From positions 1,028,415 through 1,068,414 of the forward strand of contig CAWGYA010000008.1 in the NCBI GenBank assembly GCA_963826715.1: a stretch of 40,000 nucleotides of DNA, given 5' to 3'. Each line of letters starts with the position of its first letter. Positions within the stretch are counted from its first letter, which is position 1. Of this stretch, positions 25,464-28,105 are shown piece after piece. Origin of the DNA: Candidatus Bathyarchaeota archaeon (GTDB taxonomy: Archaea > Thermoproteota > Bathyarchaeia > Bathyarchaeales > Bathycorpusculaceae). A model generated the notes under the pieces. It saw nothing but the letters and a program-made list of their open reading frames with translations. It did no database searches and was not told where the DNA came from. A program made the position numbers and the translations under genes.

Positions 25464-25470
25464 AAAAAAA
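25464..25470 (-). terminator. Oligo-T (T7) run 30 nt after the DsrE-like stop
   Basis: The minus strand reads 'CCTTTTTTTAATG' downstream of the stop at 25501. This probably separates the sulfur operon from the HycE-like/SagB pair. Confidence 0.4.
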
Positions 25471-25500: not shown

Positions 25501-25920
25501 CTAAATGAACATGGAAACGTCTGCGCCAGAAGCAATGTCAAGGAAGGTTGCAGCACCGACCATGTTATCTACTTCTGGAATAAGGTCTTCTCTTTTGATT
25601 CCAAACATTTCCATAGTTGGAGTACATGCGTATATTGTACATAGACCAGATTTTTTAAGGCGCTTAAGCATATCGTAAGGCGTGGGGTATTTCATGCGTT
25701 CTAAATTCTTTCGCATTGTCTCTTCCAGATGTTTGTAGTCTCCGGGTAAAACTGCTTTTTCCATGGCTCCTTTTGCTAGACTTTGTAGCCCCCAAAATGT
25801 GAAGTAAAGGTGAGCTTCCCAACCCATAGCTACAGATGTGGAGGCTAAAATAAATGCACAATATAGTTTATCGATCGTTCCACTTTGAACAACTAGAGCT
25901 AATTTCTTTGTTTGACTCAT
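25501..25920 (-). CDS. DsrE/DsrF/DrsH-like family protein
   Basis: 'KKLALVVQSGTIDKLYCAFILASTSVAMGWEAHLYFTFWGL' and 'IYACTPTMEMFG'. The ATG at 25920 shares an ATGA overlap with the upstream mini-ORF. Confidence 0.75.
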   Translation of the reverse strand: MSQTKKLALVVQSGTIDKLYCAFILASTSVAMGWEAHLYFTFWGLQSLAKGAMEKAVLPGDYKHLEETMRKNLERMKYPTPYDMLKRLKKSGLCTIYACTPTMEMFGIKREDLIPEVDNMVGAATFLDIASGADVSMFI

Positions 25921-26069
25921 TTTTTTATCTCCTTTTTTTCTTGAGGTGCACAATTTTGACAGCAAAAACTTACTGTTTTCCCATTTATTTCGGTTGAGTA
26001 AGTTGCAAGTTCACAAGCTTCTCCTGGGCTTTCTGTATCGCAGCAATTACACTTGTTCTCTTTTTTCAT
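25917..26069 (-). CDS. Cys-rich 50-aa miniprotein (TRASH/YHS-like pattern), absent from the ORF track
   Basis: Hand translation gives MKKENKCNCCDTESPGEACELATYSTEINGKTVSFCCQNCAPQEKKEIKK*. Its start overlaps the iscU stop (TAATG) and its stop overlaps the dsrE-like start (ATGA). Confidence 0.6.
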   Translation of the reverse strand: MKKENKCNCCDTESPGEACELATYSTEINGKTVSFCCQNCAPQEKKEIKK

Positions 26070-26455
26070 TATTCCACCTCTTTTTTACCTGTTTTCTTTT
26101 TTTCATAGTCCTCTATAGCCGCATGAAGTGCATCAGCCGCTAAGTTTGAGCAATGCATCTTTACTGGTGGAAGACCCCCGAGAGAGTCGGCAACACTTGC
26201 GCGCGTTATTTTCATTGCCTCATCCAAGGTTTTTCCCTTTGCAAGTTCAGTTGTCATACTGCTTGTAGCAATAGCGGCTCCGCAACCGTATGTTTTGAAT
26301 TTAACGTCTTCTATGCGATTCTCTTTAACTTTAATGTACATTGTCATCATGTCTCCGCAGGTTGGGTTTCCTACTGAACCCACACCATCGGCATCGGGAA
26401 TTTCTCCCATGTTTTGAGGTTTTTTAAAATGTTCCATTACTTTTTCAGAATACAT
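26069..26455 (-). CDS. iscU: Fe-S cluster scaffold IscU/NifU-N
   Basis: 128 aa with 'GNPTCGDMM', 'FKTYGCGAAIATSS', 'MHCSNLAADAL'. Confidence 0.92.
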   Translation of the reverse strand: MYSEKVMEHFKKPQNMGEIPDADGVGSVGNPTCGDMMTMYIKVKENRIEDVKFKTYGCGAAIATSSMTTELAKGKTLDEAMKITRASVADSLGGLPPVKMHCSNLAADALHAAIEDYEKKKTGKKEVE

Positions 26456-26457
26456 AA

Positions 26458-27645
26458 CTATTTCAACTCCTTAGGCGTAAGAGGAGACATATCTCTTAGT
26501 CTCTTTACAATACCTGGCATGATACTTTTTAATTTATCCACGTCTTCTTGTGTATTTTCTCTTCCCAAAGTTAACATCAGAGAACCATGTGCATCTTCTG
26601 GTTCTAAACCCAATGCGCGCAAAACATGAGAGGGCTGCAAAGTTTTAGCGGCGCATGCCGAGCCCGATGAAGCTAAAATACCCTCAAGATCTAAACTTAA
26701 GAGTATTGATTCACCTTCTATGAAGCTGTACCTTACCGAAACGTTATCGGGTAATCTTTTGGATGGATGGCCGTTTAAGAATGTGTTTGGAACAGGTTCG
26801 ATAAGACCTTTAATTAAATCATCTCGAAGCGAAATCAATCTCTTGCCTTCGGTGAACATTTCGGTTTTTGCAATATCTGCAGCTTTAGCAAAACCCACTA
26901 AACCAGGTATATTTTCCGTTCCCGATCTCAATCCGCGTTCTTGTCCACCACCTTGAATTATTGGCTCGATAGTTGTGCCTGGTTTAATATATAGTGCTCC
27001 AACTCCTTTTGGTCCATACATGTCGTTACTTGAAAGTGTTAAGAGATCTATGTTTTCATTTTGTACATCAATTGGGACTTGACCTGAAGCTGCTGTGGCG
27101 TCAACATGTAGGAAAGCCTTTTTTTCATGCACTATTTTACTAATCTCTTTGATTGGCTCAATAGTACCTATCTCAGGGTTTGCGTAGACAATTGAAACAA
27201 GTATCGTTTGATCGTTCAATTCAGCTTCAATTTTTTCTAAATCTAAAACCCCAAAGCTGTCAACAGGCAAGAAAACTACCTCGAATCCGTTTCGTATCAA
27301 AACTTTACACGGGTTAACAATTGACATATGCTCGATGCTAGAGGTTAAGATTTTATTGCCCCGGGTTTTGTTTCTACCGGCTATACCTCTGATAGCCAAG
27401 TTGTTGCTTTCTGTGGCTCCTGAAGTGAAAATTATAGCTTCATTTTTTTCAGAGTTGATTAATTTAGCGATACTTTCTCTACTTTGTTCTAAAGTTTGTT
27501 TTGCATGCTGTCCTAAGGAATGTACTGATGAAGGATTCCCAAAATACATTTTAAAAAATGGTAACATAGCATCAGTTACGCGTGATTCAACAGGTTTTCC
27601 CGCTGAGTAATCCATACAGATTTTTTTTTCATTAATGTCATCCAT
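26458..27645 (-). CDS. iscS: IscS/NifS-like class V aminotransferase-fold protein lacking the PLP-binding lysine
   Basis: 'HVDATAASGQ' and 'SSGSACAAKTLQPSHVL' (active-site Cys loop). The canonical 'SGHKxYGPKG' reads 'SSNDMYGPKG', with Asp208 (codon 27022-27024) in place of Lys. AAGGAGGA precedes the ATG. Confidence 0.88.
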   Translation of the reverse strand: MDDINEKKICMDYSAGKPVESRVTDAMLPFFKMYFGNPSSVHSLGQHAKQTLEQSRESIAKLINSEKNEAIIFTSGATESNNLAIRGIAGRNKTRGNKILTSSIEHMSIVNPCKVLIRNGFEVVFLPVDSFGVLDLEKIEAELNDQTILVSIVYANPEIGTIEPIKEISKIVHEKKAFLHVDATAASGQVPIDVQNENIDLLTLSSNDMYGPKGVGALYIKPGTTIEPIIQGGGQERGLRSGTENIPGLVGFAKAADIAKTEMFTEGKRLISLRDDLIKGLIEPVPNTFLNGHPSKRLPDNVSVRYSFIEGESILLSLDLEGILASSGSACAAKTLQPSHVLRALGLEPEDAHGSLMLTLGRENTQEDVDKLKSIMPGIVKRLRDMSPLTPKELK

Positions 27646-27666
27646 GTTACGGTCCTCCTTGTTTGA

Positions 27667-27966
27667 TTATTTCAGTTTCTTAACTATTATCTTGGTTACG
27701 CCGTCTTCTTGTTTGCTTTCTAGTACTTGGTGACCTAAATTTTTAGCAAGGTTTTCAATGTCTGCTTTAGCTGCTGGGTCATCGGCAATGATTTCAAGAG
27801 TTTCTCCGACTTTCATTTCATCCAATTGTAATCTAGTGTTGAAAACTGGTTCTGGACAGAATAACCCCAAACAATCTAGAGATTTATCGGCTTTTATAAG
27901 AATACCCTCAAATAAACTGAGACGTGGTAACAATAAAAGTTTTCCTAAATCATTGAACACATTCAT
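27667..27966 (-). CDS. TusA/SirA-family sulfurtransferase
   Basis: 'LDCLGLFCPEPV' (CPxP motif) and 'LEIIADDPAAKADI'. The first ~25 aa may lie upstream of the true start. Confidence 0.78.
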   Translation of the reverse strand: MNVFNDLGKLLLLPRLSLFEGILIKADKSLDCLGLFCPEPVFNTRLQLDEMKVGETLEIIADDPAAKADIENLAKNLGHQVLESKQEDGVTKIIVKKLK

Positions 27967-28105
27967 TAAGAATTTGACTGCTCAAACTTTTATGGCTCAG
28001 TTCAGATTTGGAATTTATAAATTTTCGTATCAATGATTTTGAGTGTCGTTGTTAAGTTTGCAAACAAACAAAAATAGGATTAAGGCAAAAAAGCCTGTTA
28101 CTTTA

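Follow-up and report, generated by a model that had tools for sequence, protein, structure and literature searches.

The locus described here raises the question of where the sulfur of an iron-sulfur (Fe-S) cluster comes from when the IscS protein encoded beside the scaffold lacks the lysine that binds pyridoxal 5'-phosphate (PLP). It lies in a stretch of 40,000 nucleotides (the window) from a Candidatus Bathyarchaeota archaeon (GenBank assembly GCA_963826715.1, contig CAWGYA010000008.1, positions 1,028,415 to 1,068,414 of the forward strand). Five genes on the minus strand encode TusA, an IscS-like protein, IscU, a 50-amino-acid cysteine-rich protein and a DsrE-like protein. Among Fe-S systems, the minimal ones of archaea have been studied least. 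Structural work since 2012 has reportedly revealed that the IscS-IscU pair of Archaeoglobus fulgidus holds a cluster, though its IscS cannot use the sulfur of cysteine. Lysine-less IscS genes of archaea and bacteria nearly always have genes for TusA and a DsrE-family protein beside them, lysine-bearing IscS genes almost never. This linkage offers concrete candidate sulfur donors, TusA and the DsrE-family protein, for the A. fulgidus-type pair.

The linkage was surveyed in four samples: 80 loci from named genomes, searched with a small alignment of six lysine-less sequences; the 30 best-scoring loci among 301 genomes sampled from the phylum to which Methanoperedens belongs; 18 loci from genomes related to that of the window; and 20 further paralog loci from the same 301 genomes. 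Profiles made from the window proteins and from their orthologs were run against the open reading frames (ORFs), and carriers were counted when they lay on the same strand within 2 kb. Over the pooled 147 loci, TusA and/or DsrE stand beside 57 of the 63 lysine-less IscS genes (TusA and DsrE together at 38 loci, TusA only at 15, DsrE only at 4, neither at 6), whereas the 84 lysine-bearing loci comprise none with both, two with TusA only, none with DsrE only and 82 with neither. One of the six carrier-free lysine-less loci ends at a contig edge. Eight genomes contain both kinds of paralog, and the carriers adjoin the lysine-less copy in all eight. The best-scoring loci of the Methanoperedens-phylum sample carry the motif SSND or ASND without exception (30/30), with TusA and/or DsrE adjoining in 29 of them. 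Linkage to DsrE is exclusive to the lysine-less type in this sample; linkage to TusA is not. The only lysine-bearing loci with TusA are two from Bathyarchaeia (L143:1495-3533 and L144:1492-3540), where IscS is followed by a fusion of IscU with DUF59 (FeS_assembly_P) and then by TusA. A natural TusA-IscS fusion of 485 amino acids (P0178) has also been found, and its IscS part retains the lysine.

The original prediction had taken the setting among TusA and DsrE to be peculiar to this locus and had suggested a survey of whether IscS genes with the lysine-to-aspartate change generally occur with these carriers. The survey was positive, and the context is instead the rule for lysine-less IscS (57/63 versus 2/84). 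A literature search found no paper that names or tests a link between lysine-less IscS and TusA/DsrE. The isc1 cluster of Methanosarcina acetivorans (IscS1 MA0808, IscU1 MA0807) resembles the window in that IscS1 likewise has no catalytic lysine (PMC7585200, PMC13066941), and differs from it in the order of its genes and the subtype of its DsrE. The cluster has been depicted, though not studied, and IscS1 expressed on its own was insoluble.

The residues of the window IscS indicate why cysteine is a doubtful sulfur source for it. The protein matches Aminotran_5 of Pfam (PF00266, 3e-75, residues 11-372), and its top matches among Protein Data Bank (PDB) entries are all of the IscS/NifS type, as expected for the class-V aminotransferase fold of that group. 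Among solved proteins, the best relative is IscS2 of A. fulgidus (PDB 4eb5, E 1e-140), with which HMMER aligns the window protein end to end. In this alignment the window segment 'lssnDmygpkg' faces 'issnDiygpkg', Asp208 (codon GAC, 27022-27024) pairs with Asp199, and the engineered D199K variant (4r5f) has a lysine in the column of Asp208. The predicted replacement of the PLP Schiff-base lysine by Asp208 within an SSND motif is confirmed in this way, and a register shift at the lysine column is ruled out. The active-site cysteine loop, which had also been recognized, is indeed retained, with Cys331 in SGSACAAK (codon 26653-26655) and Lys334 following it. Further PLP-contact residues are changed, Asn207 standing in place of His and Ala185 in place of Gln; the equivalents of Thr78, His106, Asp182 and Arg240 are kept. 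The NCBIfam equivalog models give 485 against a cut-off of 530.75 for NifS and 404 against 643 for IscS. With SSND instead of S-x-H-K and scores under both cut-offs, the protein falls outside the canonical IscS/NifS desulfurases. A pseudogene was considered and is ruled out by the intact ORF and by the homologs, which form over 100 clusters at 79-86% identity.

These changes are not peculiar to the window. Among 148 homologs (64 lysine-less, 84 lysine-bearing), every lysine-bearing sequence has Gln at position 185 of the window protein and, with one exception, His at 207; in the lysine-less sequences Gln is absent from 64/64 and His from 63/64. A Lys or Arg three residues past the loop cysteine is present in 59 of the 64 lysine-less sequences versus 10 of the 84 lysine-bearing ones. 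The loop cysteine itself never varies, either among the 80 loci of the first sample or among the 150 cluster representatives. Judged from these alignments, the PLP contacts are lost in a coordinated fashion across the lysine-less sequences.

In the trees, which were built without the A. fulgidus sequence itself, the window IscS falls within a 14-row clade (Shimodaira-Hasegawa-like approximate likelihood ratio test support 98) and, in a larger tree, within a 58-row clade with local support of 99. Lysine-less proteins fall into two clades, each with its own support and with different substitutions (D/N versus Q/A). The SSND-like clade includes Bathyarchaeia, Methanomethylicia, Thermoplasmata, Asgard archaea, loci of the Methanoperedens-phylum sample, Actinomycetota and Nitrospinota, and the NQ-like clade includes Dehalococcoidia, Nitrospirota, a deltaproteobacterium and Scalindua. 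Linkage to TusA and DsrE holds for both, in differing gene orders. Named homologs of the window IscS come from Bathyarchaeia.

With A. fulgidus IscS2 as its best relative among solved proteins, with the same SSND segment and with a place in a well-supported lysine-less clade, the window IscS belongs, as far as sequence can place it, with the A. fulgidus lysine-to-aspartate class. This agrees with the original prediction; the class, and the change itself (the A. fulgidus D199 type), are already known, and the window supplies a new member. The A. fulgidus IscS has been reported to have no desulfurase activity owing to the lysine substitution, and to supply its loop cysteine as a ligand to the [2Fe-2S] cluster on IscU (PMC7585200, PMC13066941). 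Given these reports and the loss of Lys, His and Gln, the window IscS would be expected to bind no PLP and to have no cysteine desulfurase activity, and the window pair to form an (IscS-IscU)2 complex. The two systems share SSND, Asp at the lysine column, the loop cysteine and an adjacent IscU gene (A. fulgidus structures 4EB5, 4EB7, 4HVK and 4R5F). The window operon differs in adding TusA, a DsrE2B-like protein and a TRASH/YHS-like miniprotein. No discussion of partner sulfur carriers for the A. fulgidus pair was found in the literature read.

The features of the operon, in the direction of transcription, are as follows.

28014..28021, minus strand: TTTATAAA, archaeal TATA-box-like element and putative operon promoter, 48 nucleotides upstream of the TusA ATG (read directly)
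27667..27966, minus strand: TusA-family sulfur carrier, 99 amino acids as ORF (PF01206, 8e-24; alignment with 15 orthologs)
26458..27645, minus strand: lysine-less IscS (MisS-type), 395 amino acids (Aminotran_5; best PDB match 4eb5, E 1e-140)
26069..26455, minus strand: IscU scaffold, 128 amino acids (NifU_N, 5e-50)
25917..26069, minus strand: 50-amino-acid protein with seven Cys, TRASH/YHS-like (orthologs, conserved Cys and natural IscU fusions; fold evidence weak)
25501..25920, minus strand: DsrE2B-like protein of a sulfur-transferase family, 139 amino acids (PF13686, 8.5e-26; best PDB match 2QS7)
25464..25470, minus strand: T7 run resembling an archaeal terminator (putative), 31 nucleotides after the DsrE stop codon (read directly)

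The ORF listing and direct reading of the junctions bear out the tight packing noted earlier, with spacings of 21 and 2 nucleotides followed by overlaps of 1 (TAATG) and 4 (ATGA). The two overlaps suggest that the miniprotein gene is translationally coupled to both of its neighbours. The tight junctions, the promoter-like element upstream of TusA and the T7 run after the last stop codon make the five genes look like one transcription unit. The DsrE-like gene is taken from its ATG (25920-25501); a TTG-extended ORF would reach 25965.

TusA scores 83.7 bits in its Pfam family against a cut-off of 28.6, and carries Cys37 in a CPEP motif (the CPxP active-site cysteine) and an extra Cys32. It reaches 67.8 against a cut-off of 78 with the NCBIfam equivalog of E. 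coli TusA, and is therefore a member of the family, not a tRNA-thiolation ortholog. IscU passes the NCBIfam NifU_clost cut-off (208 bits against 187.9), with a complete ligand set (Cys33, Asp35, Cys58 and Cys102) and the LPPVK motif. In Asgard and actinobacterial lysine-less loci, IscU has a C-terminal extension of about 140 amino acids without a Pfam match (L029:7180-7980, L033:7204-8007, L035:7161-7997, L051:3845-4648).

The DsrE-like protein, predicted only at that level, can be refined to DsrE2B-like. It matches DrsE_2 (PF13686, 91 bits), its best PDB match is DsrE2B of Sulfolobus solfataricus (2QS7, E 2e-32), and the conserved Cys99 in YACTPTMEMFG pairs with the cysteine of FACSTTMEFFG in 2QS7. 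Domain, closest prototype and cysteine are those of the DsrE2B subgroup; with the NCBIfam DsrE2 equivalog the protein scores 75 against a cut-off of 210. Its gene lies downstream, after the miniprotein gene. Most lysine-less loci, including those of sister Bathyarchaeia, have a short DsrE3A-like gene (3MC3, E 4e-18) between TusA and IscS. The window belongs to a 7-row subclade (support 100) that has swapped this upstream DsrE3A-like gene for the downstream DsrE2B-like one. Retention of a DsrE-type gene through non-orthologous replacement argues that its function is needed. In two loci of the Methanoperedens-phylum sample (L101 and L103), genes of both types flank the lysine-less IscS-IscU pair, the DsrE3A-like one upstream and the DsrE2B-like one downstream. 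The same protein families occur in the dsrE3A-dsrE2B-tusA clusters of sulfur oxidizers (Metallosphaera cuprina; S. solfataricus, 3MC3 and 2QS7). In those organisms the carriers serve a heterodisulfide-reductase-like sulfur-oxidation complex, whereas in the window, which comes from an anaerobe, they accompany IscS-IscU and no such complex is encoded nearby.

The miniprotein, which the original prediction had already placed in the operon, has turned out to be conserved and, in some relatives, joined to IscU in one protein; it looks TRASH/YHS-like. It matches no Pfam family at threshold. Of the 16 lysine-less loci of Bathyarchaeia that were examined, 15 encode it, as do three loci of the Methanoperedens-phylum sample, and Cys7, 10, 19, 36 and 37 are invariant within the ortholog alignment. 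Its tail, '..G-K-x-x-x-F-C-C-x-x-C', resembles YHS/TRASH modules, and its profile weakly matches a 'GKTYYFCC..C' protein in another locus (L027, E 6e-4). Fusions to the C-terminus of IscU occur in two genomes of the same genus and in five protein clusters of a large database, which argues for direct cooperation of the two proteins. Binding of a metal (iron or zinc) or of a cluster by the miniprotein, in direct partnership with IscU, is probable. An AlphaFold2 (AF2) model predicts a hairpin and a helix at low confidence (predicted local distance difference test score 62). AF2 of a natural IscU-miniprotein fusion (P0366) gives a confident IscU, a disordered linker and a low-confidence tail, and holds no docking information.

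The inheritance of the module was followed within the genus of the window organism. Lysine-less IscS is present in 8 of 24 sampled genomes, exactly the eight with a DsrE hit, and the lysine-less module is accessory in this genus. SufB/D, which was sought in the window genome and 40 relatives, is also patchy in the genus (9/24), and ten of the 24 genomes showed neither SufB/D nor the module, so that close species differ greatly in their Fe-S machinery. This co-inheritance within one genus, together with the DsrE2B exchange and the TRASH-like miniprotein with its IscU fusions, is what is new here. The window adds two handles on the A. fulgidus-type pair, namely a natural exchange of DsrE subtype and a small predicted metal-binding partner of IscU.

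The proposed answer to the question of the sulfur source is a relay. Sulfane sulfur would be carried as a persulfide on Cys99 of the DsrE2B-like protein and/or Cys37 of TusA and handed to Cys331 of IscS, from which it would pass to IscU, Cys331 then serving as the fourth ligand of the cluster. Loading of TusA might draw on sulfide or polysulfide from the environment, or on the genuine desulfurases that other parts of the genome encode, and the miniprotein would handle metal or cluster at IscU. In E. coli, TusA docks on IscS with its cysteine about 4 A from the loop cysteine (PMC2854127). TusA and IscU both dock there near the loop cysteine, which provides a precedent for a TusA-IscS-IscU relay. 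The E. coli IscS differs in being PLP-dependent and in giving its sulfur to TusA. As the window IscS presumably cannot make a persulfide from cysteine, the flow proposed here is the reverse. In Asgard archaea (Promethearchaeota), a gene of about 795 codons adjoins the lysine-less IscS-IscU pair at L029:9239-11635, L031:2345-4735, L033:8375-10756 and L034:8786-11188. The L029 product (798 amino acids) fuses a pyridine-nucleotide-disulfide oxidoreductase, two rhodanese domains and TusA, and resembles a persulfide or coenzyme A-disulfide reductase; the other three were grouped with it by BLAST clustering only. The position of this rhodanese/TusA fusion beside the pair points to sulfane sulfur and, with TusA-IscS docking in E. 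coli, makes the relay route plausible. That the five genes make up a single operon encoding a minimal iron-sulfur cluster (ISC)-type (MIS) Fe-S assembly module, that its IscS is no cysteine desulfurase and that a relay from DsrE/TusA through Cys331 to IscU is the most likely mechanism is a joint reading that we favour with slightly better than even confidence. A wider proposal is held more tentatively and falls short of even confidence: lysine-less IscS would be a persulfide-relay adaptor that forms, with TusA and a DsrE-family protein, a widespread cysteine-independent route of inorganic or relayed sulfane sulfur to IscU, to which the TRASH-like miniprotein of Bathyarchaeia adds metal handling. 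If this is true, it would amount to a distinct fifth component set for the minimal ISC-type system.

Several points weigh against the relay and the reading built on it. Resemblance to the window protein guided the choice of loci, which are therefore no random sample, the two lysine-less clades represent at most two independent evolutionary contrasts, and lysine-less IscS may have a single origin. In the window subclade the TusA gene calls for caution, since comparison of the start codons in the window and in relatives L130-L134 revealed no ATG at the expected tusA start in L131 and L132 and a frameshift in L130, all among the closest relatives, and the window ORF has an N-terminal extension of about 21 amino acids (27904-27966) that is absent from orthologs. 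The fold assignment of the miniprotein is weak: Foldseek gave no significant match to its model (E at least 0.28), the top non-significant ones being L24e, phenol hydroxylase alpha-subunit chains (2INP, 2INN) and the TRASH domain of ZMYM5, and the TRASH/YHS label is a lead only. The only DsrE2B studied, from M. cuprina, was unreactive with six sulfur compounds and took no thiosulfate from TusA or DsrE3A (PMC4175335). This inertness in vitro would suit a system in which free sulfide feeds IscS-IscU, IscS acts only as structural partner and cluster ligand, and TusA and DsrE2B are co-regulated neighbours with other sulfur-related roles (tRNA thiolation, molybdenum cofactor synthesis or sulfide buffering, for example). 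In the published view, minimal archaeal systems draw their sulfur from free sulfide (PMC13066941, PMC12192291), sulfide is abundant in the anoxic habitat, and 6 of the 63 lysine-less loci have no carrier nearby. We nevertheless consider this explanation rather unlikely, as it leaves unexplained why the carriers are linked to lysine-less and not to lysine-bearing paralogs of the same genome, why one DsrE was replaced by another, and why module and DsrE were gained or lost jointly within the genus.

Gene linkage is silent on the direction of sulfur flow. The lysine-bearing IscS genes linked or fused to TusA (L143, L144 and P0178), for which flow from IscS to TusA is expected, also count against the relay, and that direction is the known one in E. 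coli (PMC2854127). The IscS-IscU pair might accordingly capture sulfide or cluster-derived sulfur on Cys331 and pass it to TusA/DsrE2B for thiolation, the module being a cysteine-independent sulfur mobilizer and not a cluster factory. Such a reversal appears improbable: an IscS without PLP has no known way to form a persulfide alone, and the full ligand set of IscU and the predicted metal-binding miniprotein fused to it point to cluster assembly. That the window IscS is still a working desulfurase, through non-covalent PLP or another lysine, in an ordinary IscS-TusA pairing, would fit the other fold motifs, most of which are kept (the Thr78, His106, Asp182 and Arg240 equivalents), and is very hard to credit, given the joint loss of PLP-contact residues in lysine-less sequences (Gln 64/64, His 63/64), the scores under the NifS and IscS equivalog cut-offs and the reported inactivity of the close A. 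fulgidus relative (PMC7585200).

For the preferred relay, the rest of the genome is informative about possible sources. The window assembly (2.64 Mb) is 96% complete; neither a SufB/D core nor a YeeE-type sulfur transporter was found in it, and three rhodanese domains are encoded elsewhere in it. Three IscS paralogs of the same genome read SGHK, SSFK and SGHK at the lysine column, and a lysine-bearing IscS/NifS-like protein is encoded at C7:115543-116712. With lysine-bearing desulfurases elsewhere in the genome, cysteine-derived persulfide would be available in the cell, though not from the window IscS. At C8:632066-635167, outside the window (L004, L001), a diverged IscS-like/IscU-like pair precedes a genuine SufS, which scores 587 bits where the family cut-off is 475. 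This IscS-like protein keeps its Lys, has His changed to Phe and Gln to Asp, and sits on a long tree branch; the IscU-like protein has 178 amino acids. A degenerate IscS beside a real desulfurase echoes the adaptor idea.

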